Of a stretch of DNA of 31,757 nucleotides, positions 1,848-31,757 are shown piece after piece. Every line of letters starts with the position of its first letter. Position 1 is the stretch's first letter. The notes under the pieces are model-generated. The model did no database searches. It was not told where the DNA came from and saw only the letters and a list, made by a program, of their open reading frames with translations. Source of the stretch: Armatimonadota bacterium (lineage in GTDB: Bacteria > Armatimonadota > Fimbriimonadia > Fimbriimonadales > Fimbriimonadaceae); NCBI GenBank assembly GCA_031405735.1, contig JANNJE010000474.1, positions 1 to 31,757 on the forward strand. The letters are read 5' to 3'. Made by a program: the position numbers and the translations under genes.

Positions 1848-4249
1848 GCCGATTTTCCCTTCCGCCAAAAGTGATCGCCCAAAACCGCGAGCAGAATCAG
1901 CCCGCCTTGAATTGCCCTTTCCCAATAGATTGCCGATTCACCGAGTTTAAGAAATATGAGAACCGTCGAGATCATGCCGAGCAGAATTGCACCGAGTACC
2001 GTGCCAAAAACCGAGCCTTGTCCGCCGCGAATCGAAGTTCCGCCAACAATTACCGAAGCGATCACGGCCAATTCGAATCCTGAACCAAAGCCAGATTCAA
2101 TCACCTGCAGTTGGGTCGCCCCAAAGAGCGCTGCGACTCCACAGGCCAGCCCAATCAGGGCAAATACACCAATGCGAATACGAGTTGACGGAACGCCGCG
2201 CAAAGCTGCAGCGTCTGGGTTGCTTCCAATGGCGAAAACGCGCAGTCCAAACGATGTCCGTTTAGTAATCCAGATTCCTGCAGAAACTGCTACCAAAGCG
2301 ATCCAAATGGAGTAAGGCACGTTGAGAAATGCTCCTGTGCCGAACTGGCGAAGCCCATTTGGCAAATTTTCAATCCACTTTCCACCCATGAGCAATTCCG
2401 TCACTCCTTTTAGAATTGTCAGCATCCCTAATGTCACAATGATTGATGGAATCTTTGCCTTTGAAACAAGTATTCCGTTGAGTATTCCGCCGATTATCCC
2501 GGCTCCCAAGCACATTCCAACTCCAACGAAAATTGGCAATCTCATACGGTCCGTTGAGCAAGCAATTCCAAGGACGACGGCACAAAGTCCCATCAATGAT
2601 CCTATTGAAATATCAATTTCGCGGGCGAGGATCACCAGCGTCATCATGGAGCCGACGATCAAAACAGGTGCAGTTTTGACCAGAATGTCGGATAAATTTG
2701 TCCAAGATAGAAACGAAGGATTTACGAGAGCGGCAATAGCACCGACCAGCAAAATTAAGGTCGCGACTACTGTTTCCTGTGAAATCCAGCTTCTCGAATT
2801 CGTATTGACGGCAACTTGAGAGGCACTTTCAATCGGTAGAGCAAGTTCCAAAATGGCTTCTTGGGTAGCTTCTGCGCCAGAAATTTCTCCTGAAATCGTT
2901 CCTTGGCGCATGACCAAAATTCGGTCCGCCAAAGACAGCACTTCGGGCATATCCGAAGAAATTACAAGCACCGCGCCGCCTGATTCTGCAAATTTATGAA
3001 TCAGCTTGTGAATTTGCTCCTTGGCACCGACATCCACTCCTCGAGTGGGTTCGTCGAGGACTAGATTGTCTGGATCGGTTGCCAGCCATTTGGCGAGAAG
3101 CACTTTTTGCTGATTTCCGCCTGAAAGCGATGACACCAGGTTCATATCAGATTCAGTCTTGATAGAGAGGCTTTCAATCTGACTTTCAGATACAAGCTTT
3201 TCTAAATCCCTTTGAATCAGGGGCCGATCTTGGAGTGCCATTGCGATGTTCTCGCGAATGTTGAGCTGCGTATGCAGCCCTTCGTGTTGGCGGTCTTCTG
3301 GTACAAATGCGGCACCATTTGCGCCTAGAATCTCTCCGGAATCGAGCTTATCAAGTCCAAAAATCGCTCTCGCAACTTCCGACCTTCCTGCCCCTACGAG
3401 TCCAGTGAGTGCTACGATTTCGCCCTTGCGCAAATTGAAGCTGACGTCTTCATACGAGCCTGACTTGCAAAGGTTCGTTACTACCAATTCTGGTGCTCCG
3501 AACGTTTTTGTTTGCCGAATAGCAGAGTCAATCGTCCTTCCGACCATGAGCTTTATCAGCTCTTCGCGGTTCGTTTCACAAGTAATTTTTGTGGCAACTT
3601 TTCTTCCGTCACGAAGAACGGTCACTCGGTCTGAAAGCAAGAAAACCTCATCGAGCCGGTGCGTGACGTAAAGAACCGCGACGCCTCTCTCTCTCATCGA
3701 ACGGATTGCGGCAAAAAGAGCTTCTGATTCTCTCGCCGAAAGCGATGACGTTGGTTCGTCTAGGATCAAAAGCCTACAATCGCTTGAAAGCGTACGAGCG
3801 ATCGCAACTATTTGCCTTTGCGCGACGCTTCGATCCAAAAGTGGCCTGTCTACATCGAATTCTTCGCCTATGGATTTAAGAGAGCTAAGAGTCCTTTTTC
3901 GCATTTCATTGCGGTCAATCCAAATGCCACACGCCATGCTCGGCTCGCGCATGATCTCGTGGTTTTCGATTGCGCTTAAGTGTAGAAATGCGGCAGATTC
4001 CTGGTGAACCATCGAAATTCCGTTGGCTTCCGAATCCTTTACAGACCCAAATTTTAGCGGTTTGCCGTCAAGAAGTACAACTCCTGAATCGGGCACCACT
4101 GAACCGGCGAGGATTCGGTTAAGCGTGGATTTGCCAGCCCCGTTCTCACCGCATATCGCGTGAACTTCTCCAGCTCGAATCTCTAAGTCAATTTCGCATA
4201 GAGCGAGCGTCCCATCATAATGCTTCGAGACGCCGCGAAGCTCGATCAT
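1844..4249 (-). CDS. Fused sugar ABC ATP-binding protein (two NBDs, RbsA type) plus permease (RbsC type)
   Basis: Walker A GENGAGKS, LDEPTSSL, LSGGNQQK and LDEPTRGVD in the first ~470 aa, followed in frame by a permease with EIDISIGS, IVTLGM and IASVIVGGTSIRGGQG. Confidence 0.92.
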   Translation of the reverse strand: MIELRGVSKHYDGTLALCEIDLEIRAGEVHAICGENGAGKSTLNRILAGSVVPDSGVVLLDGKPLKFGSVKDSEANGISMVHQESAAFLHLSAIENHEIMREPSMACGIWIDRNEMRKRTLSSLKSIGEEFDVDRPLLDRSVAQRQIVAIARTLSSDCRLLILDEPTSSLSARESEALFAAIRSMRERGVAVLYVTHRLDEVFLLSDRVTVLRDGRKVATKITCETNREELIKLMVGRTIDSAIRQTKTFGAPELVVTNLCKSGSYEDVSFNLRKGEIVALTGLVGAGRSEVARAIFGLDKLDSGEILGANGAAFVPEDRQHEGLHTQLNIRENIAMALQDRPLIQRDLEKLVSESQIESLSIKTESDMNLVSSLSGGNQQKVLLAKWLATDPDNLVLDEPTRGVDVGAKEQIHKLIHKFAESGGAVLVISSDMPEVLSLADRILVMRQGTISGEISGAEATQEAILELALPIESASQVAVNTNSRSWISQETVVATLILLVGAIAALVNPSFLSWTNLSDILVKTAPVLIVGSMMTLVILAREIDISIGSLMGLCAVVLGIACSTDRMRLPIFVGVGMCLGAGIIGGILNGILVSKAKIPSIIVTLGMLTILKGVTELLMGGKWIENLPNGLRQFGTGAFLNVPYSIWIALVAVSAGIWITKRTSFGLRVFAIGSNPDAAALRGVPSTRIRIGVFALIGLACGVAALFGATQLQVIESGFGSGFELAVIASVIVGGTSIRGGQGSVFGTVLGAILLGMISTVLIFLKLGESAIYWERAIQGGLILLAVLGDHFWRKGKSA

Positions 4250-7200
4250 CGTGCAAGACTGCTCCGAAACGTGTATTCACCAGAGCCAACTTTTTCAATC
4301 GAACCACCAGGTACATGAATTTCAGCCGTAACGTTGGGCGGGATTACAACCCTCATTGTTAAGGCAGTGCCGTTCTTTCGCCATTCCGACACAATCGTTC
4401 CTCGCACAGACTCATATGACGATCTTAACCACTTCAAATTAGGGTCAATTTGTGGCGCAATTTTCACGGTTTTAAATCCAGGATCAAGGTTTGTTATTCC
4501 AGCAGGTTGAGCGAAAATCCAACCTACTACGGCTCCGAAAGCATAGTGGGCAAACGAATTCATTCCTGGGTCTTGGAATCCTTTGTCTGGTGTCCACCCA
4601 TCCCATCGTTCCCAAATGCTAGTCGCTCCATTTTCAATCGTAAATCCCCACCTTGGGAAAGTCTTATTGTGAAGCAGACGGAATGCCACATCGTTTCTTC
4701 CGATTTTGCTGAGTACATGCATGATGTCGCGAGTGCCGACAAATCCGGTTGAAAGATGCCAGCCTTTGCTTTCTATTCGAGCCACGAGGTGCGATGCGGC
4801 TTTGGCAGCCATATCCTTTTCAAGCAGATCGAAACCAAGCGCGAGAACGTAAGCGCATTGAGAATCGCCGCTGACCTTGCCATCTGGCGTTGTATAGGCT
4901 CCCTGGAAGGCACGCCTGACCCTTCGGTAGAGCGTTTCATATTCCAAACCATCTTCAACCTTTCCAAGCGCATATGCGGCTTGCGAGAGGATTCGTGCGC
5001 TGCCAGCAAAATAGGCTTCATAAATCACTTCGTTTGGAGTCGGATCATTGATGTTGACCCAATCTCCAAAAGCGTGAAACTCTTTTGGCGGTAAGAGATC
5101 TGGCGTAGACCGCTTTCTGCAAAATTCGACAAAGCGTTTCATCGAGGGATAGTGCCTTTCGAGCAGTTGGCGGTCGCCATATACATCGTAAATCGTCCAC
5201 GGGCATATCACGCCCGCATCCGCCCAAGCTGGGCCCCCATCTGATCCAGCCACTTTTACGGGGGCTACCATAGGGAACTGCCCGTCCTCTCGCTGACTGT
5301 CATCCAATGCGACGAGCCACTTTGTAAAGAACGGTTGAACATCGTTCAGGTAAGTTGCAGTGCGAATATATGCCTGAGCATCGCCCGTCCAACCTAGTCT
5401 TTCGTCTCTTTGCGGACAATCGGTGGGAATATCTATGAAGTTCATTGCTTGAGTCCACCAAGCATTCTTCACTAGCCGGTTGATCATCGGGTCGCTGGTT
5501 TCGATGGTGCCAGCATTTGGCGTGTCGCTGCTAACAGCTACGCCAACCACTTCATCTTTAGTTGGACGGCGCCCGAGTCCCGTCACTTCGACGTATTGGA
5601 AACCATGGAACGTGAAGCTTGGTGACCAAGTTTCTGTACCTTCACCACGGCAGATATAGGTGTCTGTAGCCTTCGCCCCACGAAGATTGACTGTGTAAAT
5701 GTTGCCGTCGGGGCTTAATCGTTCGGCAAACCGCAAGACGATTTCTTGCCCCCTACGGCCTTTAAGTTTGAGGCGTGCAAAACCTGCAATGTTTTGTCCT
5801 AGATTGAGTACATAGACTCCAGGTTTGGGCTGCGTGATCGTCTTGGCTTGCAAAACGGCGATTTCTCTAACTGGTTGTCCTGGAAATGGTTCAATAGTGG
5901 TCTGAAAGTCGTTTCCGACATCAACTGGCTTCCAAAGAGTAAAAGTTCCGACTTTCACAAAATGAGCTGGTTTACGGAAATTAGGCTGATCCCATTCTTT
6001 CAATTCGTTAGTAGCATTGTAAGTCTCTCCCATCAGAAAGTCAGAGAATATTATCGGCCCGGTGCTGGCTTTCCAATCCTTCGAGGTTCCAATTGTTTCG
6101 GTAGTCCCATCTGCGTAATTCACTACTATCTGCGCTTTGGCTCTCAATTTCGTTCCGTAATGGTCGCGCCTTCCACCATAGCCAACATATCCTGAAAACC
6201 ACCCGTCTCCGAGCACGATCCCTATGGCATTTTCGCCTTGCCAGAGTTGCTTGGTCACGTCGTAGCTGCAAGCATACGTGCGCTTGGCATAGTCGCTCCA
6301 GCCTGGCATGAAGTAGTCGCTGCCAACTTTTTGGCCGTTCAGGTGCATTTCGAAGATTCCAAGAGCTGTGCCGTGCAGGGTTGCGCTCTTGATTGGCTTG
6401 GAAAGTGTGAATTCATTTCTAAGCAGGCGAGGTGAAGGCAAGACTAGAGCTTGATTGATCCGGCCCCATGGATTTGCCCCGTAGGTTGCGACTTCCCTTG
6501 CTGCCCGAAAAGGGCCATCTTTGGTCGGAGCAGCAGTCCACTCGCTATTCGTACGAATAGCAATGGGGTCTGCGGTCGCATTTTCGATGTTCAATACTGC
6601 CAACAAGCCTGCGTCGCCGCCCGTATCTTCCACTTGCACTCGAATTTGGTTTTCTCCCCTAACCACACTTTTCGAAATGTCAATTTCCACTGGCTTTCGC
6701 CACGAATCAGTTTCTCTGCTGCTTCGGTGAACCTCTGCATTGTTCAACGTAACAACAAAGTGATCATCGGCTGTGATATTAAGCTTAGCCTTCAAAGGAA
6801 CTCTGTCAACGGAAAAGACTTTTCGAAACTCAACAATCTTTACTCCAGAGGCACCCCATATCCATTTTGCGCCTTCAAAGGGATCGTTAGTCTTCAAAGC
6901 ATTTCGAGGCTCATCAAATCCTATCCAGTCCGCCTTCCAGTCGCTCTCTTTAAGCAAGCCTATTCCAAATCTGGCAGGCGGACTCCACTGCGAGACATAT
7001 CCATCTTGATCAACGATCTGAACTCTCCACCAGCAGCGCTCATTCGAACCCAGCGGTTTTCCTTTATACGTGACGCCGATGGTTTCGTCCGAGCGAATGA
7101 CTCCACTATCCCACAGGTCGGCTTTTGTTTCGGAAAGAGATTTTGGATCAGTTGCGACCAGTATTCGGTAAGCCGTCTGACTCAAGTTCTGCCCTCCTGC

Positions 7201-7338
7201 CGTCGCGCCAACTTTCCAGCTAAGTTTTGGAAAAGCCGTCCCTATTCCAACAGGGTCTGTTAGAGATTCGCATCGAAGCTGAATCGGTTCGACGCTAGAA
7301 CCCGACATAATCAGTACACCAAATAATGAAGCTAACAT
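4246..7338 (-). CDS. Alpha-L-rhamnosidase (GH78), probably exported
   Basis: PTDCPQRDERLGWTGDAQ catalytic motif, LSTGFVGT and TSIWERWDG...MNSFAHY. Likely start ATG 7338 (MLASLF) or 7350; the longer ORF-track start overlaps waaF. ATGA overlap with the next gene at 4246-4249. Confidence 0.93.
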   Translation of the reverse strand: MLASLFGVLIMSGSSVEPIQLRCESLTDPVGIGTAFPKLSWKVGATAGGQNLSQTAYRILVATDPKSLSETKADLWDSGVIRSDETIGVTYKGKPLGSNERCWWRVQIVDQDGYVSQWSPPARFGIGLLKESDWKADWIGFDEPRNALKTNDPFEGAKWIWGASGVKIVEFRKVFSVDRVPLKAKLNITADDHFVVTLNNAEVHRSSRETDSWRKPVEIDISKSVVRGENQIRVQVEDTGGDAGLLAVLNIENATADPIAIRTNSEWTAAPTKDGPFRAAREVATYGANPWGRINQALVLPSPRLLRNEFTLSKPIKSATLHGTALGIFEMHLNGQKVGSDYFMPGWSDYAKRTYACSYDVTKQLWQGENAIGIVLGDGWFSGYVGYGGRRDHYGTKLRAKAQIVVNYADGTTETIGTSKDWKASTGPIIFSDFLMGETYNATNELKEWDQPNFRKPAHFVKVGTFTLWKPVDVGNDFQTTIEPFPGQPVREIAVLQAKTITQPKPGVYVLNLGQNIAGFARLKLKGRRGQEIVLRFAERLSPDGNIYTVNLRGAKATDTYICRGEGTETWSPSFTFHGFQYVEVTGLGRRPTKDEVVGVAVSSDTPNAGTIETSDPMINRLVKNAWWTQAMNFIDIPTDCPQRDERLGWTGDAQAYIRTATYLNDVQPFFTKWLVALDDSQREDGQFPMVAPVKVAGSDGGPAWADAGVICPWTIYDVYGDRQLLERHYPSMKRFVEFCRKRSTPDLLPPKEFHAFGDWVNINDPTPNEVIYEAYFAGSARILSQAAYALGKVEDGLEYETLYRRVRRAFQGAYTTPDGKVSGDSQCAYVLALGFDLLEKDMAAKAASHLVARIESKGWHLSTGFVGTRDIMHVLSKIGRNDVAFRLLHNKTFPRWGFTIENGATSIWERWDGWTPDKGFQDPGMNSFAHYAFGAVVGWIFAQPAGITNLDPGFKTVKIAPQIDPNLKWLRSSYESVRGTIVSEWRKNGTALTMRVVIPPNVTAEIHVPGGSIEKVGSGEYTFRSSLAR

Positions 7339-7422
7339 ATCATTCAGCATTCTACTTGACGTTTTCCGTTGGAACATCAATGAACTTGACGATTCTTCCC
7401 TTGTGTTAAATCTGGAGTCAAA

Positions 7423-8433
7423 GTGAAGATACTTGTCGTTGCTCCTAGGTGGGTGGGAGACGCTGTGCTGAGCCAAAGCCTTTTGAAGTTGCTTCGAAAA
7501 CGGCATCCGACAGCCACAATTGAAGCATTGGCATCGCCTTTAATTGCACCGTTATTTTCGTTTATGCCAGAAGTTGACTGTTGCTTAGAACTGTCAACAT
7601 CGAGCGGCAAAGTTGACTTATTGCAGCGGATCAAAATGGCATTTCAAGTTCGAAAACGCCGCTATGATTGGGCAATTGTCATGCCGGGCTCGTTCAAATC
7701 AGCAATCGTGCCTTGGCTGGCTAGAGTACCCAGGCGCACAGGAACAACACATGAGTTTCGCACTTGGCTAATCAACGATCCTAAGGTCGCCGACATTGCC
7801 AAATTTCTTCTCTCGATTGACCGCGCCAGTTTGCTTGGCTTAGACAAAAACGAAGAACAGCCGCCAGGATTTTCAGAAAGGCCGAGTTTTGTTTGCGATG
7901 AGGACAAGGTCGCTCGAACCATCCAAGAATTTGGAATCGTTGCCGAATCACAGAAATTCATTGCCCTTGTGCCAGGTTCAGAAGGGGGCGAAGCAAAGCG
8001 CTGGCCGACCGAGCACTATGCTGAGGCCGCCAACCTGCTTTTGGCGGAGGGCTTTCAGGTTCTAATCATTGGTTCTTCAAAGGAAGTTGATATCGCTCAA
8101 TCCATTCAACTTTCAACCCGGAACCAGTGCCTCGATTTATGTGGAAAAACGTCGCTTGAACAAGCCGTCCACATACTGAGTGTAGCAAGCAGCGTTGTTT
8201 GCAATGACTCTGGACTGATGCACGTAGCCGCTGCACTAAACAAACCCATTGTAGCGATTTATGGCCCGACCCATGCAGATCACACGCCACCGCTCTCGGA
8301 CATGGCACAAGTCATCAGCCTCGGGCTTCCATGTTCGCCATGCTATGAAAGGAATTGCCCGCTTGGACATCATGATTGCATGAGACAAATTACTGCGGCA
8401 ACTGTCGTCGAGCAAGTAAGGGCGACTCTTTAG
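7423..8433 (+). CDS. waaF: Lipopolysaccharide heptosyltransferase II (GT9)
   Basis: MKILVVAPRWVGDAVLSQSL N-terminus, AKRWP, NDSGLMHVAAAL and C-terminal CSPC...CPLGHHDC. GGAG lies 5 nt before the GTG start. Confidence 0.9.
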   Translation: MKILVVAPRWVGDAVLSQSLLKLLRKRHPTATIEALASPLIAPLFSFMPEVDCCLELSTSSGKVDLLQRIKMAFQVRKRRYDWAIVMPGSFKSAIVPWLARVPRRTGTTHEFRTWLINDPKVADIAKFLLSIDRASLLGLDKNEEQPPGFSERPSFVCDEDKVARTIQEFGIVAESQKFIALVPGSEGGEAKRWPTEHYAEAANLLLAEGFQVLIIGSSKEVDIAQSIQLSTRNQCLDLCGKTSLEQAVHILSVASSVVCNDSGLMHVAAALNKPIVAIYGPTHADHTPPLSDMAQVISLGLPCSPCYERNCPLGHHDCMRQITAATVVEQVRATL

Positions 8434-8467: not shown

Positions 8468-8503
8468 AATAAAAAGCAGCCCCAAATGAACACTTGGGGC
8501 CGC
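8468..8503 (-). terminator. Rho-independent terminator of the 8518-10812 gene
   Basis: On the minus strand: GCGGCCCCAA, 8-nt loop, TTGGGGCTGC, then TTTTTATT, 14 nt after the stop codon. Confidence 0.75.
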
Positions 8504-8517
8504 TAAAGGTTCCTGGA

Positions 8518-10812
8518 CTAGAGCCCGACTGTGAATCGGAACATGTCAATTTTGAAGAATGCCAATGAAACGGTTTCCGCCGAACCGCGATCCATCGTGA
8601 GCCGAGCCCTCATTTCTCTGGTCGTGGAGTTCACGAACCTCGAAACGGTTCCGCTAACGGTTACAGTTCTTGTTGTATCTGTTGTGCGAAGAAAGCTTGT
8701 ATCAGCGACTTCCCATTGGCTGGTTGTCCAGTTCCAAAGTTCAACGGACTGGAATCGGCCATTGCGATCCCCAGCCGCCTCGATGTCGAGCTTCAATGTG
8801 CCAGGAGTCGTGATTGGCGCAAAGCCAGTCAAGGTTACTTGAGCCGGGAAACTCGAGGATGAGCCTGTCGTTTCGTTAACTCGATAGTACGAGTTATCCG
8901 ACGTTGCAACGCTGCCCACGGTTCCGCCACCACTTGAACCAAGATTAATCGTGATTGTTGACGGCGAAATCTTTCCGTTTGGAGGGCTCATGACGCTTGC
9001 AGGGAAATCCGTTCCTGTTCCAGGTTTGAATAGTCCAACACTTGCCGCGTTTGCCATAGGTGCAACATTTGCAGTAAACGTGAAGTTGTAAAGACCTCCG
9101 TACTTCAAGCTGTTGGCATTTGGATTTACCGCAAAGGTTTGAGTTGACCAAACGATCTCGCCATTTGCATAAGAACTTGACCAGTCGTTGCCAGGAAGTA
9201 TGTCTGTATCTCTGAACCCAACGTTTGTGACAGTCATGCCCGTCATCATCGGAATCTTGAGTTCTCGAATCTGCCGATCGCTCGTGTAATTGAACATGGA
9301 AAGTTCGTATTGCCAAAGCCCGCCGCCAAGTCGAATCGGATTGCAAGCAACATAAACCCACCCTTGATTGAGGCCGGATAGTTCAACTACGATTCTGCTT
9401 ACTGTAGCCAAAACGTCACCGGCACCGACGTTTTTCGATGCATTTATCATCGAAACGTATTGTTCGATAGCCGCTTTATCTGGAATAAATGCGCCGTTGT
9501 CTGCACAAGCCCAAGAAGAACCGTTCCATGCAATGTTCGCGAGTCGAACTCCAATTTGGTTTGCCAAGTTGAGGTCCTGCTCGCAAAGATAAAACGATTG
9601 ATACAAATACTGTCGAGATTCGCCACCAGGAATGATCAGGTCCGCATCTCGAACCTCAAGCCGGTTCTTATGGGCTGGGAGTGCTCCCGCTTGACCGCTA
9701 GTCAGTGAACGGGCGCCGTCTGGAGTTGCTCCGCCCGTTCCAACATCAAAGAATGAGCCAAATGCAGTCCAATGCCCTGTGAATGGATTCACTTCTGACC
9801 GTGGACCAAGATAATATCGGTCGCCATTGTTTCCGGTGCCGTATGTATCTGTAAGTCCAGGGCCTAGAAGAGTGCCCGTTCCGGGATTCTGGCCAACTCC
9901 ACAATTTGAATTTGTAGTGTTAGTAGCAAAGAAACCATGTTTCAAATAGGCTGACCCAATCTGCTCAATCCTGCCAAGCCGAACTCGGAAAAGGTCTTGA
10001 ACAATAACTGGATGCCTTTCGTTCATTGGAGAGAACCAGTCAATATTGGTTGATCCCTTATTACATGATGTGGTCAAAGTGGCCATACCGGTAATGCCGT
10101 TTGGATACGCGACGCCGTCTCTTCCCAATGATGCCAAACCACTCATATTGAATAGGTTTACGTCGGCGTTTACGTTATCTTCAAATCCACCGCCGCCGCC
10201 TTCGCCAATCTTAACTTCTTGGGTTGGTGCCACGTTTGCAAAAACCGTGAATCCACCTATCAGCAAACCTTCAGCTTCTGGCTTTCCGAGTGCCATTGCC
10301 GCTTCACGAGACAATTTCAAATCCGCCCATCCCATAGTCAAAATTCTGCGTTGAATATCGAAGAAGGTAATCGCGTGCTCCATGTCAAGCGAGGGAGCCA
10401 GTTCACCAACGAACCCGTCCCGAATGGCCAATGGTGAAGATTGAGTTGGTCCTATCGGCTTGACGCTCAAATTAAAGACAGGTACAGAAGTTTTTCCAGA
10501 CTTAATCGAAAATCCGCCCTTAACTCGCACTTTGCCGTCCATGTAATAGCCAAAAACTTGATTTTCGGTCATCACTTTCAGGTCAGACGTGGAGTCAACT
10601 TTGAATCCGTAGCCGCCTTCCATTGGCCAGTTCCCAAAAGCTGTTGGGGTCAGATTTGTAATTTCAAGTCCGTAAGCGCGAACATTGTCGGGCCAAAATT
10701 GAACAATCGCCGTACCGCCGGTAACTTTCCAAGGTACATCTTGTGCCGACGCAACTATTGCGCTGCCTAATACACAAAGACCGATACCCGCCTTAAATAA
10801 GTGTTTAACCAT
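8518..10812 (-). CDS. Secreted multidomain protein: N-terminal beta domain, central lysyl-oxidase-like domain, C-terminal ~150-aa domain shared with 13771-15240
   Basis: Sec signal ending ASA-Q; GAGGAG Shine-Dalgarno; Gly linker GEGGGGG; N-x-G, K-x-x-F and PGxxDTY motifs; S/T-rich C-terminal domain. The CDS is secure; the function is inferred. Confidence 0.85.
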   Translation of the reverse strand: MVKHLFKAGIGLCVLGSAIVASAQDVPWKVTGGTAIVQFWPDNVRAYGLEITNLTPTAFGNWPMEGGYGFKVDSTSDLKVMTENQVFGYYMDGKVRVKGGFSIKSGKTSVPVFNLSVKPIGPTQSSPLAIRDGFVGELAPSLDMEHAITFFDIQRRILTMGWADLKLSREAAMALGKPEAEGLLIGGFTVFANVAPTQEVKIGEGGGGGFEDNVNADVNLFNMSGLASLGRDGVAYPNGITGMATLTTSCNKGSTNIDWFSPMNERHPVIVQDLFRVRLGRIEQIGSAYLKHGFFATNTTNSNCGVGQNPGTGTLLGPGLTDTYGTGNNGDRYYLGPRSEVNPFTGHWTAFGSFFDVGTGGATPDGARSLTSGQAGALPAHKNRLEVRDADLIIPGGESRQYLYQSFYLCEQDLNLANQIGVRLANIAWNGSSWACADNGAFIPDKAAIEQYVSMINASKNVGAGDVLATVSRIVVELSGLNQGWVYVACNPIRLGGGLWQYELSMFNYTSDRQIRELKIPMMTGMTVTNVGFRDTDILPGNDWSSSYANGEIVWSTQTFAVNPNANSLKYGGLYNFTFTANVAPMANAASVGLFKPGTGTDFPASVMSPPNGKISPSTITINLGSSGGGTVGSVATSDNSYYRVNETTGSSSSFPAQVTLTGFAPITTPGTLKLDIEAAGDRNGRFQSVELWNWTTSQWEVADTSFLRTTDTTRTVTVSGTVSRFVNSTTREMRARLTMDRGSAETVSLAFFKIDMFRFTVGL

Positions 10813-13735: not shown

Positions 13736-13770
13736 CGCGATACTAGCTGGAATTGCTAGAGGAGGAAGAC

Positions 13771-15240
13771 ATGAGTCTCCAACTTGATCAATCACTCATA
13801 GTCGTGAAATTGGCGCGCATATTTGCAACCACTGCGCTATTTCTTGGCACTATATCCGCAGCCGATGCACAGTGGACGGTAGTAAACCTGCACTTTGAAT
13901 CTGCGTGGGGGTCAGGTGCTACCAGTGTAGATGCCGGCCAGCAAGCAGGCAGGGCCGATATGTCCGGTACTCATCCTATCCTTTGGACAGGTTCCGCCTC
14001 TACTTGGGTGGATTTGTTGCCGACAAACGCAACTAGCGGCTCAGTTTTTGGCACGAGTAACGGTCAGCAAGTTGGCAATGTTTATATGGGGATGGAGCTT
14101 GCCAGTCTTTGGACAGGCTCAGCAGCATCTTGGGTGAACCTGAATCCTCCGGGCGCTGTACGCTCTGTAGCTATGGACTGTAATGGTTCCGCGCAAGTCG
14201 GAGGCGTAAGTTTTGGAGGATTGGGGCACGCAGGAATTTGGAGTGGTACTGCCGCATCTTGGGTGAGTCTTCACCCCAGTGGTGCTTCTGGTTCCGGTGC
14301 TCGCGGGATGGATGATTTTCAACAGGTCGGAACTGCAAACGTTAGTGGTAATGCCCACGCAAGTTTGTGGAACGGTACGGCTGCTTCGTGGGTTGATTTA
14401 CATCCTGTTGGCGCGACGTACTCCGATGCATTCGCAGTGCATAGCGGACAGCAAGTCGGTGAGACGTTTTTCGGCGGTGTTCATGTCGCCAGCCTCTGGA
14501 GGAACACGGCCGCTTCTTGGGTGAATCTGAATCCAACATCGTCAACATGGTCTGCTGCGTCAGGCGTTTATGGGTCAGAGCAAGTAGGATCTGCCAAATT
14601 TGGCAACTATTTCCATGCCGGATTGTGGCGCGGAACCGCTGCATCTTGGGTTGATTTGCATTCATTTTTGCCAGCTTATTTTTATTCTTCTCAAGCCAGT
14701 GGTATCACTCGCAGCGGGGGCTTCACATATATAGTTGGACATGGTCAGAACACAATGACGAATCGCTATGAAGCCTTAGTCTGGGTAAGACAAGACGAGT
14801 TCCAACCGACCTCATACAACGTCCATCAGGGCTTAAACTTCGGTGGAAACCTAGGGTCGCTCCTGAACTCGGACGACAACAAGGTCTACGTCCTTTGCGA
14901 TGAATTCGATTCTGTTGGCGAAATCCAGTTCAACTCCACCCTTCCAGCAGGAACAGTGAGCCAGCTTAAATTCAAACACGAAGGCAGCGCATCAAGGAAC
15001 GACCTGAGCCAGTTTGTACGGATGTTCAACTACTCGACGAACGCCTACACCAACGTCAGCATCCAAAACTCGACCATTGTAGATTCGGTCGTCGAAGGGA
15101 CAATTACAACTGGAGCCGCGAGTTATGTTTCGGGTACCAGGGAAGTCAAATCCAGAGTTTTCTGGGTTCCCCAAGCGGATATTTCCAATGTTGACGGATG
15201 GACGCAAACGTGCGATCAGGCGATCTGGACGGTGAATTAA
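13771..15240 (+). CDS. Secreted ~43-aa repeat (probable beta-propeller) protein with the shared C-terminal domain
   Basis: Start moved to ATG 13771 after GAGGAGG; signal peptide ending ADA-Q; six copies of LWxGxAASWVxLxP, five followed by QVG, plus an N-terminal half repeat. Confidence 0.88.
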   Translation: MSLQLDQSLIVVKLARIFATTALFLGTISAADAQWTVVNLHFESAWGSGATSVDAGQQAGRADMSGTHPILWTGSASTWVDLLPTNATSGSVFGTSNGQQVGNVYMGMELASLWTGSAASWVNLNPPGAVRSVAMDCNGSAQVGGVSFGGLGHAGIWSGTAASWVSLHPSGASGSGARGMDDFQQVGTANVSGNAHASLWNGTAASWVDLHPVGATYSDAFAVHSGQQVGETFFGGVHVASLWRNTAASWVNLNPTSSTWSAASGVYGSEQVGSAKFGNYFHAGLWRGTAASWVDLHSFLPAYFYSSQASGITRSGGFTYIVGHGQNTMTNRYEALVWVRQDEFQPTSYNVHQGLNFGGNLGSLLNSDDNKVYVLCDEFDSVGEIQFNSTLPAGTVSQLKFKHEGSASRNDLSQFVRMFNYSTNAYTNVSIQNSTIVDSVVEGTITTGAASYVSGTREVKSRVFWVPQADISNVDGWTQTCDQAIWTVN

Positions 15241-25969: not shown

Positions 25970-27762
25970 GCAATGGCCCCCTGATCAGCAGATGAACTGA
26001 TTCGGACAACCGACTTTTTGTATTCAGGAATCTTGCTCAGCGGGTCAAGGGCGCGGTTCGTGAGGTTGTTCGCAGACCGTTTGCCGGGCCAATGGTAAGG
26101 GATGAAGATGGTGTCGGGGCGTATCGTAGAAACCACTTTTGCGCGAAGTACAACCTCGCCGCGGCGACTTTCAACCTTCATCCAACTGCCGTCTTCAATA
26201 CCGTAATTGGCCGCAAGCGTCGGATGAATTTCAACATACGGCTCAGGGCACATGTCAACCAAGCCGCCGATACGACGTGTTTGTGTACCGCTAAGATACT
26301 GCGAAACGACGCGGCCAGTTGTGAGAATTATAGGATATTCTTCGTCTGGCTCTTCTGCGCTGAGGCGATAAGCCGTGGGGTGAAAGTGCGCTTTGCCGTC
26401 CGGGGTATGAAACTTCATTGTCTCGAACAGTCGCGGAGTGCCTGGGTGGCCGATCTCGGGGCAGGGCCAAAATACGCCCATCTCGTCCTCGATCCTTTGA
26501 TAGGTAATCCCGAAATAGTCTGCAGTTCCGCCCTTGCTCGCAATTCGCAACTCGTTGAAAATGTCCTCGCTGGTCTTAAAGTGGTCGAAATACTTGCCCC
26601 TGCCAAGCCGCCGGGCGAGTTCGAGAATGATCTCTGTGTCGGCTTTTGCTTCTCCTGGTGGATCAACTGCCTTTCGAATCCGAATCACACGGCCTTCTGC
26701 ACTTGTGCTTGTGCCTTCTTCTTCTTCATGCAATGAGCCCGCGAGGACGATATCGGCGTGGTGGGCGGTCTCATTTAGAAAGAAGTCTATTGCAGTATAG
26801 TGCTCGAGTTTGCCTAGTGCGTCCCTCGTGAAGTTTGAATCCGGCAACGAAACAAGTGGATTGAAGCAAATCGAGATGAGCGCTTTGATCGTGCCTTCGT
26901 GGATCATGTTCATGATCTCTTGAGCCGTGTGTCCTTTGCCAGGCATCTCGCTCTCTTCAATGCCCCAAACGGAGGCTATGTACGCACGATGCTCCGGATT
27001 CTCGATGTCGCGGTTGCCAGGAAGCTGGTCGCATTTGTGACCGTGCTCACGGCCGCCTTGGCCATTCCCTTGGCCCGTGATTGTGCCGTATCCGCAACCC
27101 GGCTTTCCGAGCCTTCCTGTTGCGAGTACAAGATTGATGCAGCCAAGCACATTGTCAACACCTTTGGTATGGTGCTCGATCCCTCTCGCATGAAGCAGAA
27201 AGCTCGTTTTTGCTTCGCCCCACATTCGGCCCGCCTTCTGGATGTCCTCGACTCTGACGCCGCTAATCCTGGATGCTTCCTCCAATGATTGAGTAAGAGC
27301 ACTGGCCTTCGTCTCTTCCCACCCGCTTGTGTGCTGTTGGATGAATTCCTCATTCACAAACCCTTCTTCGATCAGCACTCGCAAAATCCCCGTGAAAAGG
27401 GCACTGTCTGTCCCCGGCCTCACCGGCAAATGCAGGTCGCAGGTTCGCGCTAGGGGTGTCACGCGAGGATCAATCATGATCAGCTTTGCACCCCGATCCC
27501 TTGCACGCCAGATGTAGTCAGTCGTGATCGGAGAGCACTCTGCTACGTTTGTTCCGGCGCAAAGAATTACATCCGCAAGGACAATGTCATCCCAAGAATT
27601 CGCAGCTCTATCAATGCCAAACGCTTTCTTGTTGCCTGTTCCTGCGCTCACCATACAGAGTCGGCCATTGTAATCCAATTCTTGTGTTTGCAGAGCGACG
27701 CGGGCGAACTTGCCCATCAGGTAGCTCTTCTCGTTTGTTAATGAAACGCCGGAAAGCACGGC
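25966..27762 (-). CDS. Molybdopterin oxidoreductase catalytic subunit (Nas/Nap-type nitrate-reductase-like), 5'-truncated at the junction
   Basis: NGRLCMVSA (Cys-Met Mo-ligand context as in Nap/Nas), [26 protein letters not shown] and KIPEYK. The N-terminal 4Fe-4S domain is absent. Confidence 0.88.
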
Positions 27763-27770
27763 GCGCGGAC
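27755..27770. other. Chimeric junction between two genomes or contigs
   Basis: Two opposite-strand genes are both truncated at this point, with an abrupt change to GC-rich codon usage. Confidence 0.88.
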
Positions 27771-29060
27771 GTGAAGCTCAGGCTTTGGAGCGTTCTGAAG
27801 GCGCAGCTGGCGGCCGACCGTCTCACCTCGGTCTACGAGACGTTAGAGCGGCCGCTCGTTTCCGTGCTGACCGACATGGAAGAGGCTGGGATTCTCGTCG
27901 ACCGCAACGTGCTGACGCGGTTGTCGCAACGCTTCGCGCAGAAGATGGCGCAGCTTGAAGAGAGCATCTACAAGCTCGCCGGCGAGAAATTCAATTTGGG
28001 TTCGCCGAAACAGCTCGGCGAAATCCTGTTCGAGAAGATGAGTCTGTCGGGCGGACGCAAGACGAAGACCGGCGCTTGGTCGACGGATGCCGACGTGCTG
28101 GAAGAGTTGGCCGCGCAAGGACACGATCTGCCGAAAGAAATTCTCGACTGGCGGCAATTGTCGAAGCTCAAAAGCACATACACCGACGCGCTGCCGAACT
28201 TCGTCAATTCGCACACGGGGCGGATTCACACGTCCTACGCGCTGGCGTCGACGACGACGGGGCGGTTGTCGTCGAACGACCCCAACTTGCAGAATATTCC
28301 GATCCGCACCCAGGAAGGCCGCGAGATCCGAACCGCGTTTGTCGCGGCGAAGGGCATGAAGCTGATTAGCGCAGACTACAGCCAGATCGAGCTTCGCTTG
28401 CTGGCGCATATCGCCGACATTCCGGCGCTCAAGAAGGCGTTCGCCGAAGGGCTCGATATTCACGCGATGACGGCGTCCGAGATGTTCGGCGTTCCGATCA
28501 AGGGTATGCCGGCCGATGTGCGGCGGCGGGCGAAGGCGATCAACTTCGGCATCATCTACGGCATTTCGGCGTTCGGACTTGCGAACCAATTGTCGATCCC
28601 GCGCGACGAGGCGAACACCTACATCAAAACCTATTTCGAACGCTTCCCAGGAATTCGCGCCTACATGGATCGCACAAAGGCCGAGGCGCACAAGAACAAG
28701 TTTGTGACCACGATCTTCGGACGCAAGGTGAACCTACCCGATATCAACGCGTCGAACCCATCGCTACGGTCGTTCTTGGAGCGCGCCGCGATCAACGCGC
28801 CGATCCAGGGTTCAGCCGCCGACGTCATTCGCCGCGTCATGGTGCGGATCCCCGATGCGCTGGCCGCAAGCAAGCTCTCGGCCCGGATGCTGTTGCAGGT
28901 GCACGACGAATTGGTGTTCGAGGCGCCGGACGACGAGGCGGCGGAAACCTGCGCGGTCGTTCAAAGGGTGATGGAGGGCGCGGCACACCCAGCCATCGAC
29001 CTCCACGTGCCGCACGTCGTCGAAGCGAAGGCGGGGAAGAATTGGGACGAGGCGCACTGA
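27763..29060 (+). CDS. polA: DNA polymerase I, C-terminal part (5'-truncated)
   Basis: [49 protein letters not shown] and [11 protein letters not shown]. The NWDEAH ending is typical of Alphaproteobacteria. Confidence 0.97.
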
Positions 29061-29079
29061 CCGCTCGTCCTAAACGTTG

Positions 29080-30684
29080 CTACTCCGCCGCTACGGCGAG
29101 CCTTGGGGCGGCGTCTTTGACCTCGGCGCCGACATGGGCCTCGAACTTCGTGAAGTTCTCGCGGAACATTTGGACGAGTTTTGCCGCTTGGCGGTCGTAG
29201 GCTGCTTTGTCGGCCCAGGTTTCGCGCGGGTCTAAGATCTTTGCGTCGACGCCGGGGACGGCGACCGGAACTTCGAAGCCGAAATGCGGGTCGATGCGCA
29301 TCTTCGCCGTCTTCAGCGTGCCTTCGAGCGCGGAGGTGAGAAGTGCGCGCGTCGCCTTGATCGGCATGCGTTGGCCGGTGCCGTAGGCGCCGCCGGTCCA
29401 GCCGGTGTTGACGAGCCAGCAGTCGACCTTGTGCTTGGCGATGAGCGCCTTCAGCAGGTTGCCGTACTCGGTCGGGTGGCGCGGCATGAACGGCGCGCCG
29501 AAGCAGGTCGAGAACGTCGGCTGCGGTTCTTTGCCGAGGCCTTTTTCGGTGCCGGCCACCTTCGCGGTGAAGCCCGAGAGGAAGTGGTACATCGCTTGGT
29601 TCGGCGTCAGCTTCGCGATCGGCGGCAGCACGCCGAACGCGTCGGCGGTCAGCATCACGATGTTTGACGGTTGGCCGGCAAGGCCCGTAGTGCTTGCGTT
29701 CGGGATGTAAGAGATCGGATAGGCGCCGCGCGAGTTTTCGGCGAGCGTCGCGTCGTTCAGATCGAGTTCGCGGGTCGCTTCGTCGATGACGACGTTTTCG
29801 AGCACGGTGCCGAAGCGTTTTGTCGTCGCGAAAATTTCAGGTTCCGCTTCTGGCGAAAGACGGATCATCTTCGCGTAACAGCCGCCTTCGAAGTTGAACA
29901 CGTTCGTGTCGGCCCAACCGTGCTCGTCGTCGCCGATCAGCGTGCGGTTCGGGTCTGCCGAAAGCGTCGTCTTGCCGGTGCCGGAGAGGCCGAAGAAGAT
30001 CGCGCTTTCCTTTGCTTTGCCGACGTTGACCGAACAGTGCATCGGCATGACGCCCTTCGGCGGCAGCAGATAGTTCAGGATCGTGAAGACCGACTTCTTC
30101 ATTTCGCCGGCATAGGACGTGCCGCCGATCAGCACCAATTTCTTCTCGAACGACACGGCGATGACGGTGCCCGAGGCGGTGCCGTGCAATGCGGGTTCGG
30201 CTTGGAAGCCCGGGAAGTCGATGATCGTGAAGTCGGGATTGAACGACGCGCGCTCACCAGCCTTCGGTTCGATCAACAGATGCTGGATGAACAGCGAGTG
30301 CCAAGCGAGTTCGGTGACGACGCGCACGGGCAAACGGTGCGTCTGGTCGGCGCCGCCGAACAGGTCTTGCACGAAGAGCTCGCGGCCTTGCGCGTAGGCG
30401 CGGAACGAATTCAGCAGCGCGTCGAATTGTGCGGGTGTGATCGAGTTGTTGTTGTCCCACCAAATGTGCTTTTCGACGGAGGGTTCGCGTACGACGAACT
30501 TGTCGCCGGCGGAGCGGCCGGTGTGAATTCCGGTCCTGACGACGAGCGGGCCATCTTTAGCGAGGATACCCTCGTTACGCTGGACGGCCTCTTCGACGAG
30601 GCTTGCCATCGGCAGGTTCCAATGGACATGGCGCGTATTTTTCAGGCCCACGTGGTCGAGGCTCTGCCCGGCGGTCGTCTTCAT
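29080..30684 (-). CDS. pckA: Phosphoenolpyruvate carboxykinase (ATP)
   Basis: [40 protein letters not shown] and FEGGCYAK motifs; GGAG Shine-Dalgarno. Confidence 0.98.
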
Positions 30685-30863
30685 TCGTCAAGCTCTCCGG
30701 TGCGCGGTTCTCCTAGCGGAACCGCAGCATTTTCAAGGTAGATGGCAAGAGCGGCAACATACGGGCACCCGCCGCGCTGAGGCAACAAGACTCTGGCCGC
30801 CGGAGCGTTGCGGTGCCAGGAATACCGTCAACACCTTAACCAGCGTCCGGCTCCGTTTCGCAC

Positions 30864-31757
30864 ATGCAGCAGCCAGAGGCCGCCACGTCGAGCGGGACCA
30901 TCCAACACGTCTTGCGCCTGTGGCGCGATGACGGCTGGCCGACGCTACGTCTGGCGGCGCCGGTGATGGTGGCGCGTGCCGGCGTCGTGTTTCTGTTCTT
31001 TGTGGACTCGCTCATGACCGGGCGGAGCGGCGCGCACGAGTTGGCGTTCTTGGGGCAGGGGCTCGCCGCGCAGTCGGTGATGATGCTGATCTCGATCGGG
31101 CTGTTGCAGGGCTCGATGGTGTTGATCGCGCAGGCCTATGGCGCTGGTGAAAAGAGGCAGTGCGGCGTCGCATGGAAGGGTGCGTTGGTCGTCGCGAGCG
31201 TGCTCGGCGCTTTGTTCGCCGCGATGTGTTTTTTGGTGGAGCCGGGCTTGCGGGCGACCGGCCTTGATGCGGCGATCGCCGAAGGGTCGGGGCGCGTGTC
31301 GCTGCAGGTGGCGTGGGGGATGCCGCCGATGCTGCTCTACATTGCGAGCAGTTACTTTCTTGAGAGCATCAAGCGGCCGATGGTCGGCATGACGATCATG
31401 CTGGTCGCGAACGCCGTCAACATCGTTGCCGACGGTGTCGTCGTGCTCGGCTGGTTCGGCTGGGTCGAACCGTCGGGCGCGGTTGGTGCGATGATGACGA
31501 CATCGGCGATACGCTGGCTTTGCCTCTTCGCCGCGCTCAGCTACATCGTCACGATGGACGATGCGACGGCTTATGGCGTGTTTGCGCCGCTTGCGGAAGC
31601 ACGAACAAAGGTGTGGCGCATCCTCTCGTTGGGCGCGCCGATCTCGGCGGCGCTGGGGCTCGAGACGGCGGCGATCAGTTCGCTGGCTTTCATGTCGGGA
31701 CACTTGGGCGCGTCGGCCGCGGCCGCGCATCAGCTGACGTTCAACTTCAACGGGCTC
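30864..31757 (+). CDS. MATE family efflux transporter, running off the window end
   Basis: My translation, open from ATG 30864 to the end of the window: LRLAAPVMVARAG...FVDSLMTGR.GAHELA, AQAYGAG, LESIKRP and LSLGAPI...GLETAA. It is absent from the ORF track because there is no stop codon. Confidence 0.9.
   Translation, partial: MQQPEAATSSGTIQHVLRLWRDDGWPTLRLAAPVMVARAGVVFLFFVDSLMTGRSGAHELAFLGQGLAAQSVMMLISIGLLQGSMVLIAQAYGAGEKRQCGVAWKGALVVASVLGALFAAMCFLVEPGLRATGLDAAIAEGSGRVSLQVAWGMPPMLLYIASSYFLESIKRPMVGMTIMLVANAVNIVADGVVVLGWFGWVEPSGAVGAMMTTSAIRWLCLFAALSYIVTMDDATAYGVFAPLAEARTKVWRILSLGAPISAALGLETAAISSLAFMSGHLGASAAAAHQLTFNFNGL

Follow-up and report, generated by a model that had tools for sequence, protein, structure and literature searches.

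A secreted bacterial protein with a lysyl oxidase-like core and a membrane polyferredoxin as candidate redox partner

The contig JANNJE010000474.1 of an Armatimonadota bacterium of the family Fimbriimonadaceae (assembly GCA_031405735.1), analyzed here at positions 1 to 31,757 (the window), carries a gene for a secreted protein of 764 residues, P0001, whose central domain resembles the catalytic domain of lysyl oxidase (LOX). It is highly probable that this core is a remote homolog of the LOX superfamily. A gene for an iron-sulfur (Fe-S) membrane protein, which we call FerTPR, lies directly upstream, and P0001 is likely to be a redox enzyme that works with this partner. A LOX-derived redox domain with an Fe-S partner is the best overall explanation that we can offer for P0001, and we give it an even chance of being right. 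The source assembly is a 2.9-Mb metagenome-assembled genome (MAG) that is 86% complete, and the genome record closest to the locus is an Armatimonadota MAG of the same genus.

The P0001 gene (8518..10812; like all features below, on the minus strand unless stated otherwise) was read as an open reading frame (ORF) with its translation. Full-length homologs range from 89% to 25% identity, and the AlphaFold2 model has a mean confidence (pLDDT) of 88.9. The N-terminus reads as a Sec-type signal peptide (aa 1–23; 10744..10812), with K3 and K7 ahead of a hydrophobic core and cleavage expected after residue 23 (ASA/QD); pLDDT is below 50 for aa 1–21. There is no lipobox because C13 is preceded by L at position -1. 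The original prediction had placed a secreted protein with a divergent LOX-like core at 9500–10110, which corresponds to aa 235–438 of P0001. At the level of sequence, the signal peptide bears out the secretion, and the motifs lie where they had been reported: TTSCNKG at 247–253, RHP at 266–268, YLKHGFFA at 289–296, and LGPGLTDTYG at 316–325, with N251, G253, H267, K291, H292, and Y324 as claimed and 33 residues from K291 to Y324. The prediction had also called the domain undescribed, and indeed no Pfam or NCBIfam model covers the core.

The full-length model consists of four domains, of which the second (aa 214–460; 9433..10173) is the LOX-like catalytic-type core. We modeled this core alone (pLDDT 90.9) and compared it with 48,161 chains using VIA-align. 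Chain 5ze3_B, from the structure of human LOXL2, was the only one with a Z score of at least 8 (Z 10.2, 170 residues aligned), and the match spans LOXL2 residues 546–763, i.e., the whole catalytic domain. The next match scored Z 7.1, and this second tier (Z about 7) consisted of GH2 sandwich domains including 5dmy. The full-length model gave the same picture, with 5ze3_B (Z 10.0, model residues 214–457 on chain residues 546–763) as the sole core match in the top 50. The LOXL2 core superimposes on the beta-galactosidase 5dmy, and GH2-type proteins are named among its structural neighbors (PMC5899467). Since the same proteins are named there, their presence in our match lists counts for a LOX fold. 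In a shape search of the ESM Atlas, the first matches were unannotated clusters of the family itself, mostly from Planctomycetota and Acidobacteriota, with template modeling (TM) scores of 0.77–0.88; the nearest named clusters were two clusters of the LOX family PF01186, at TM 0.55 and 0.53. A feature search of the same atlas gave no usable match. In AFDB, the family occupies about 14 fold clusters. By these models the P0001 core is predicted to have the fold of the LOX catalytic domain, as had been proposed.

A word-indexed search found 46 homologs of P0001, which come from Fimbriimonadales (Armatimonadota) and Planctomycetota and, where they carry an annotation, are called hypothetical proteins. 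An exhaustive HMMER search returned 3,156 representatives of clusters built at 50% identity with E ≤ 0.001, and 769 with E ≤ 1e-30. The family is very large, unannotated, and bacterial. Among 401 sampled Armatimonadota genomes it was found only in P0001's own order. Genomes can carry up to 8 copies of it. Conservation was counted in 189 diverse core representatives. H267 and P268 are present in 100% of these, W259, H292, D322, and N329 in 99% (188/189 for both H292 and D322), K291, Y324, N251, and C304 in 98% (185/189 for both K291 and Y324), G253 in 97%, and D217 in 96%. The residues of the putative active site, H267, H292, K291, D322, and Y324, are thus kept at 98–100% across homologs.

Canonical LOX proteins occur in the same phylum. 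The PF01186 hidden Markov model (HMM) had matches in 15 of the 401 Armatimonadota genomes, a positive control which shows that the model works, and it matched nothing anywhere in P0001's own genome. Nine canonical Armatimonadota LOX sequences aligned with each other share LLPD, N-x-G, HxHxH, K(T/V)SFC, and PGWAD(V/I)Y, and their Lys and Tyr map to LOXL2 K653 and Y689. HxHxH, K(T/V)SFC, and D-x-Y are intact at the canonical loci (L024–L033; genomes G004, G021, G028, G061, G075, G208, and others); most of these proteins have 526–580 aa and a long C-terminal extension ending in a D-x-D/N-x-D-G dockerin-like repeat. Genome G021 holds a canonical LOX as well as a LOX-like gene that lacks the copper-binding histidine motif. 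As both kinds occur in one phylum, and even in one genome, they represent separate families.

Profile comparison with hhalign gave a probability of 1.3% (P 0.04) for 45 family cores against the nine LOX sequences, 2.6% (P 0.018) for 189 family cores against 29 LOX sequences, and 9.6% (P 0.0034) for a 12-member subfamily against LOX. The resulting alignments were always identical and co-linear. As a control, the columns of the LOX profile were shuffled 30 times and the scores compared with the real one. For the family, the real score was 22.1 compared to 12.9 ± 2.0 (maximum 18.0) for the shuffled profiles, so that 0/30 reached it, and the reversed profile scored 12.3. For the subfamily, the real score was 26.6 compared to 14.2 ± 2.8 (maximum 21.6). 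The global mode of hhalign produced a meaningless alignment and was set aside. We conclude that the P0001 core is not a member of PF01186 and that its relation to LOX is one of remote homology.

The aligned positions fall on functional sites of LOX. D217 (10162–10164) pairs with the D of the PD motif that opens the LOX domain (PD on PD), and N251-K-G253 (10054..10062; N 98%, G 97%) aligns with the invariant N-x-G of canonical LOX. K291, which together with the adjacent H292 is encoded at 9937..9942, pairs with the Lys of K(T/V)SF, equivalent to LOXL2 K653, and D322-T-Y324 (9841..9849) pairs with D-x-Y, equivalent to LOXL2 D687-M-Y689. In LOX, this Lys and Tyr are the precursors of the cofactor lysine tyrosylquinone (LTQ); K291 and Y324 fell on their columns in every profile alignment and so take homologous positions, although the alignments are of low confidence. 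In one planctomycetal subfamily the Lys motif reads K-H-G-F-C-A-A-D, compared to K-A-S-F-C-L-E-D in LOXL2.

The correspondence extends to the calcium site and to a disulfide. In LOXL2, Ca2+ is bound by D549, L550, E722, D724, N727, and N728 (PMC5899467). Y408 and the segment D413-L-N415-L-A-N418-Q419 (9556..9576) pair with the terminal G-x-Y...E-x-D-x-x-N-N of LOX, the latter segment being the counterpart of the LOXL2 loop E722-x-D724-x-x-N727-N728. Together with D217-V218, this loop matches the LOXL2 calcium site at the level of motifs. The loop follows the pattern [DE]-x-[ND]-x-x-[ND]-N in the family, with position 413 acidic in 100% and position 418 N or D in 100%. The C663–C685 bridge of LOXL2 fixes the strand that hosts Y689, C685 being four residues before this Tyr (PMC5899467). 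C320 of the family likewise lies four residues ahead of the Tyr. C307 and C320 are both present in 165 cores and both absent in 17, with 6 exceptions; P0001 is among the members without them.

The copper site of LOX, on the other hand, is missing. In LOXL2, the copper motif is located on ES2 (residues 614–634), a beta-hairpin peripheral to the core (PMC5899467), on which three His in HxHxH form the copper talon (PMC4448552, PMC5899467). We found HxHxH in none of the 189 family cores, and HxH near H267 in one core alone. The hhalign alignments leave a gap of about 30 residues in the family where LOX has the copper hairpin, and the spacing from W259 to H267 is usually 8–9 residues. The loss of HxHxH, which had been noted for P0001, is therefore family-wide, whereas H267 and H292 are near-invariant. 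H267 (10012..10014; codon checked) marks the site of the LOX copper-hairpin insertion and is found in 189/189. In the models, H267-P268 opens strand 269–278 and K291-H292 closes the returning strand (281–287, 290–292) of the same hairpin; judging from this strand register, H267 probably faces K291/H292 across the hairpin. In the crystal of the LOXL2 precursor, K653 and Y689 are 16.6 Å apart (PMC5899467). Because they are so far apart even there, a large Lys–Tyr distance is a weak argument against a LOX-type site.

FerTPR is encoded 165 bp upstream of the P0001 gene (10978..13065) and is a NapH/MauN/CcoG-type membrane polyferredoxin with a C-terminal tetratricopeptide repeat (TPR) domain, with Pfam matches to Fer4_5 (E 3e-10), Fer4, and TPR. 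It has about seven transmembrane segments and displays the motifs of a polyferredoxin, i.e., CGWGCH at 86, the CX3CP-type CTYACP at 187, and two [4Fe-4S] motifs (CxxCxxCxxxC) at 214 and 245. With NapH, MauN, and CcoG (FixG, RdxA, YccM) it shares the Fer4_5 region, CX3C[HP] after transmembrane helices, and the two [4Fe-4S] motifs. It stays below the curated NapH/MauN cut-offs, however (TIGR02163, 53.7 vs. 213 bits; PRK09477, 52.5 vs. 234), and these scores indicate a family that is related to NapH/MauN but distinct. Compared with CcoG, FerTPR has three extra transmembrane segments, and its TPR domain (about 300 aa) replaces the Ig-like domain of CcoG. According to the positive-inside rule, and with a very basic loop at 330–354, the TPR domain should be periplasmic. 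We found no nap, mau, or cco genes near the FerTPR locus.

FerTPR and the LOX-like gene occur together in two phyla. Among 41 Armatimonadota relatives, 9 genomes had both, 3 only the LOX-like gene, none only FerTPR, and 29 neither; among 41 genomes related to a pair-bearing planctomycete, the corresponding numbers were 32, 2, 0, and 7. The Fisher P values of 6e-7 and 2e-6, respectively, exaggerate the significance, given that related genomes do not count as independent observations. Of the 32 genomes in the planctomycete set with both genes, 22 had the matched segments ≤3 kb apart. In G001, G016, G018, G340, and a related metagenome contig, FerTPR immediately precedes the LOX-like gene, and two Planctomycetota contigs show the same order, FerTPR followed by the LOX-like gene, one of them with two LOX-like paralogs in tandem. 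Five genomes of other lineages that were reached via homologs had one FerTPR each (5/5), and genomes carry 1–3 FerTPR copies. Between the phyla, the Fe-S module is 57% identical (254 residues, ungapped) compared to about 25–33% for the LOX-like proteins.

At three loci without FerTPR nearby, the LOX-like gene is followed directly by a gene for a conserved secreted protein of about 220 aa (L014:11345-12037, L018:8286-8936, L034:8239-8904), and for two of these loci FerTPR was also not found genome-wide. The three proteins are 53–56% identical and end in a PEP-CTERM motif. We considered them as lysine-rich substrates and rejected the idea since they contain almost no lysines.

Some family members are fused to redox proteins. 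CXXCH motifs are present in 13 of 191 representatives (about 7%), always on the C-terminal side of the core and in many cases paired at a distance of about 105 residues, and Pfam confirmed cytochrome c in all 8 of the 13 that were scanned. Two members, P0124 and P0144, are fused to a GSDH-type pyrroloquinoline quinone (PQQ) sugar dehydrogenase, in P0144 along with cytochrome c. At the locus of P0021 (L036:4223-5740), a GSDH gene is the upstream neighbor of the LOX-like gene. Other fusions within the family involve dockerin, F5/8 type C, galactose-binding-like, FlgD_ig, P_proprotein, and EF-hand modules, and genes for glycosidases (GH78 rhamnosidase, GH5, GH38) lie near some members.

We propose that P0001 is a Sec-exported four-domain protein with a core that is a remote homolog of the LOX catalytic domain. 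The family retains the LOX beta-sandwich, the Ca-site motifs, N-x-G, the disulfide with its Cys four residues before the Tyr, and the Lys/Tyr pair that forms LTQ in LOX. It has lost the HxHxH hairpin and has instead the invariant H267 and H292, predicted to lie beside K291 at the foot of a single beta-hairpin. The LOX-like domain would act as a periplasmic or surface redox enzyme with an active site built from H267, K291, H292, D322, and Y324, and would exchange electrons with the NapH/CcoG-type Fe-S partner, whose periplasmic TPR domain would be the point of contact; elsewhere in the family, the fused c-type cytochromes would take the partner's place. Such a protein would be a dehydrogenase-like or electron-requiring enzyme and not a free-standing copper oxidase. 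The Fe-S partner and the haem c fusions suggest that the domain carries out redox chemistry with electrons going to or coming from protein carriers, and the absence of the copper site is in keeping with an enzyme that has ceased to use O2 directly.

The original prediction was of either an undescribed LOX-fold quinoprotein with a rebuilt metal site or a LOX-fold protein with a Lys–Tyr cross-link for another purpose. It is supported in part, by the LOX-like fold and by the position and conservation of K291 and Y324, the quinone, the cross-link, and the rebuilt metal site being hypothetical. The cytochrome c fusions and the partner gene point away from a plain O2-dependent amine oxidase. Given the invariant Lys/Tyr pair, an LTQ-like cofactor formed from K291 and Y324 is the most attractive candidate for the redox center, and we put it forward as a tentative one. 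More speculatively still, the family might represent a novel quinoprotein class that is widespread across Planctomycetota, Acidobacteriota, and Armatimonadota and in which a LOX-derived domain makes a Lys–Tyr quinone without the His3 copper site, with the help of FerTPR or in complex with it, and works as a dehydrogenase whose electrons go to c-type cytochromes or into the membrane and not to O2.

Several observations weigh against this proposal. Pfam and NCBIfam scans gave no PF01186 match at E ≤ 10, nor any other meaningful match, for P0001 or for 45 family cores, and HMM searches of PDB sequences, with a profile of the whole protein and one of the core, found nothing but a spurious antibody match. 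The hhalign probability of just 1–10% is low, and TM 0.55 and Z 10 are moderate values for a beta-sandwich. Foldseek searches with the core model returned nothing below E 0.03 in the PDB and only TMEM106/LEA-like noise among Swiss-Prot models, with no LOX in either. P0001 has L at position 320, which is Cys in 90% of the family. The copper site is absent although LTQ formation in LOX is copper-dependent (PMC11951088). Glycan-binding-type modules in many members, along with the nearby glycosidases, would fit a carbohydrate-active role. Finally, the Fe-S clusters of NapH and CcoG face the cytoplasm, and by analogy a direct path of electrons from such clusters to a periplasmic protein is not obvious.

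These points have to be considered together with other explanations of the domain. P0001 could be a conventional copper/LTQ amine oxidase in which H267 and H292 take over from the His triad along with a third ligand, K291 and Y324 form LTQ autocatalytically, and O2 is the acceptor, FerTPR being merely a CcoG-type cupric reductase or a chaperone that loads copper. The K, the Y, and D-x-Y kept at LOX positions and the two invariant His would agree with this, as would the automatic name 'Amine oxidase' of one AFDB family cluster and the function of CcoG, the best-studied relative of FerTPR, which serves a cuproenzyme as a specific Cu(II) reductase and whose C-terminal domain is periplasmic (PMC7558416). 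We nevertheless find such an oxidase unlikely. The entire copper hairpin is absent in 189/189, no copper ATPase or chaperone was seen beside the pair in the loci read, the checked genomes with canonical LOX (G004, G021, G028) show no FerTPR, and cytochrome c fusions would be unexpected for an O2-dependent oxidase. These fusions and the near-perfect co-occurrence with a membrane Fe-S protein would also be left unexplained if the domain were a non-redox enzyme or a binding domain for surface or environmental glycans, with K291, H292, Y324, D322, N329, and W259 as acid-base or sugar-binding residues. The carbohydrate-binding module (CBM)-like jelly-roll at the C-terminus of P0001, the dockerin, F5/8 type C, and galactose-binding-like modules fused to relatives, and the GH78, GH5, and GH38 genes near some of them all speak for this role; the glycosidase neighbors, however, vary from locus to locus, and we regard it as rather improbable.

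The remaining two explanations deny catalysis or ancestry altogether. Weak structural matches to adhesin domains that are cross-linked by isopeptide or ester bonds (5u6f_A, Z 6.2; 8f9l_B, Z 5.2) and the invariant Lys alongside invariant Asn and Asp in a beta-sandwich raise the idea of a non-catalytic surface scaffold stabilized by nothing but an intramolecular cross-link, either Lys–Tyr or an isopeptide, joining the Lys to Tyr, Asn, or Asp. As the adhesin matches score far below LOXL2, and as a scaffold would account neither for the invariant H267-P268, H292, and W259 nor for the Fe-S partner and the cytochrome c fusions, we think it very improbable. It would be more surprising still if the resemblance to LOX were convergent or due to chance, the two families sharing a frequent type of beta-sandwich and a few short motifs but no ancestor. 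The hhalign probability of 1–10%, the Foldseek results without LOX, and the lack of an HMM match are what one would expect in that case, but six motifs coincide in co-linear order with functional sites of LOX (among them the two halves of the Ca site and the Cys that precedes the Tyr by four residues), the real profile score exceeds 30 of 30 shuffles, and LOXL2 is the unique top structural match.

On the reading that we prefer, a LOX-derived redox domain with an Fe-S partner, the family can be compared with known systems. With LOX (PF01186/IPR019828; human LOX, LOXL2 5ZE3, and bacterial and archaeal members) it has in common secretion, the beta-sandwich, the opening P-D-[LIV], N-x-G, the Lys in K-x-x-F(-C), the Tyr in (C)-x-D-x-Y, the disulfide-stapled loop between the two, and the Ca-loop [DE]-x-[DN]-x-x-N-N. 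It differs by having no PF01186 match, no ES2 HxHxH hairpin, the invariant H267 and H292, an insertion of about 55 additional residues behind the Tyr, a constant Ig-like domain, a dedicated Fe-S/TPR partner, and cytochrome c fusions. The tryptophan tryptophylquinone (TTQ) methylamine dehydrogenase and the cysteine tryptophylquinone (CTQ) quinohemoprotein amine dehydrogenase offer a working analogy, for which we claim no homology. In these enzymes, a protein-derived quinone made with the help of accessory proteins passes electrons to a c-type haem or another carrier and not to O2 (PMC11951088); the LOX-like family likewise has cytochrome c fusions and an Fe-S partner. The folds and cofactor residues (Trp/Cys) of the TTQ and CTQ enzymes are unrelated to it, and we saw no MauG, QhpD, or QhpG-type maturases near the P0001 gene.

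We found no publication in the literature that describes the LOX-like family or the gene pair. A 2015 survey of LOX was built on PF01186 (PMC4448552) and for this reason could not have detected the family, and a 2025 review lists LTQ for lysyl oxidase alone (PMC11951088). New here are the co-occurrence and adjacency in two phyla, the cytochrome c fusions, the correspondences at the Ca site and the disulfide, and the shuffle control. LTQ formation is considered to require the His3 copper site (PMC11951088). If a quinone forms in the family, this would reveal that LTQ can arise independently of the copper talon and that the LOX superfamily includes a branch of dehydrogenases; if none forms, the family would show an alternative use of the conserved Lys/Tyr pair in a LOX fold. 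In addition, the two-gene module suggests a function for an uncharacterized branch of NapH/CcoG polyferredoxins.

The other domains of P0001 are all beta-structures. The N-terminal beta-sandwich (aa 27–200; 10213..10734) has no Pfam match and resembles in fold the haem-binding domains HtaA and HtaB of Corynebacterium (Z 11.5 to the HtaA C-terminal domain 6jsc_A, Z 10.2 to HtaB, both by VIA-align). We dropped the idea that it binds haem since the alignment consensus shows no conserved His or Tyr there. This domain is missing from many family members, which begin directly with the core. The Ig-like beta-sandwich (aa 470–610; 8983..9405; VIA-align Z 9.9 to 3esm_A over 486–609) is always joined to the core; family matches extend over about 215–615, with W544, N567, and P610 invariant. 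The C-terminal CBM-like jelly-roll (aa 612–764; 8521..8979) matches many carbohydrate-binding modules (VIA-align Z 10–11.6). Foldseek searches with the full model gave just generic multi-sandwich matches (integrins, CBMs, and weakly peptidylglycine monooxygenase); a relation to the monooxygenase was dropped because it was not recovered with the core-only model.

A 495-aa ORF on the plus strand (13753–15240), without a Pfam or NCBIfam match, ends in approximately 100 aa that also occur in the C-terminal jelly-roll of LOX-like proteins. By tblastn, aa 377–474 of the ORF match the 3' end of the LOX-like gene at locus L019, and the two fall into the same BLAST cluster. The shared C-terminal module of about 100 aa may be a lineage-specific anchoring or sorting domain. 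Directly past the P0001 stop codon lies a strong intrinsic terminator (8475..8504), with a T run behind a 13-bp stem that has 7 GC pairs. Further on, the predicted starts of two divergent genes overlap by 84 bases (7423–7506), one for a GH78 rhamnosidase (4246–7506, minus strand) and one for a heptosyltransferase II (7423–8433, plus strand), and the true start of one of them probably lies further in. The G+C content is about 0.47–0.53 over most of the window and 0.56–0.63 in the last approximately 5 kb (27000–31757).

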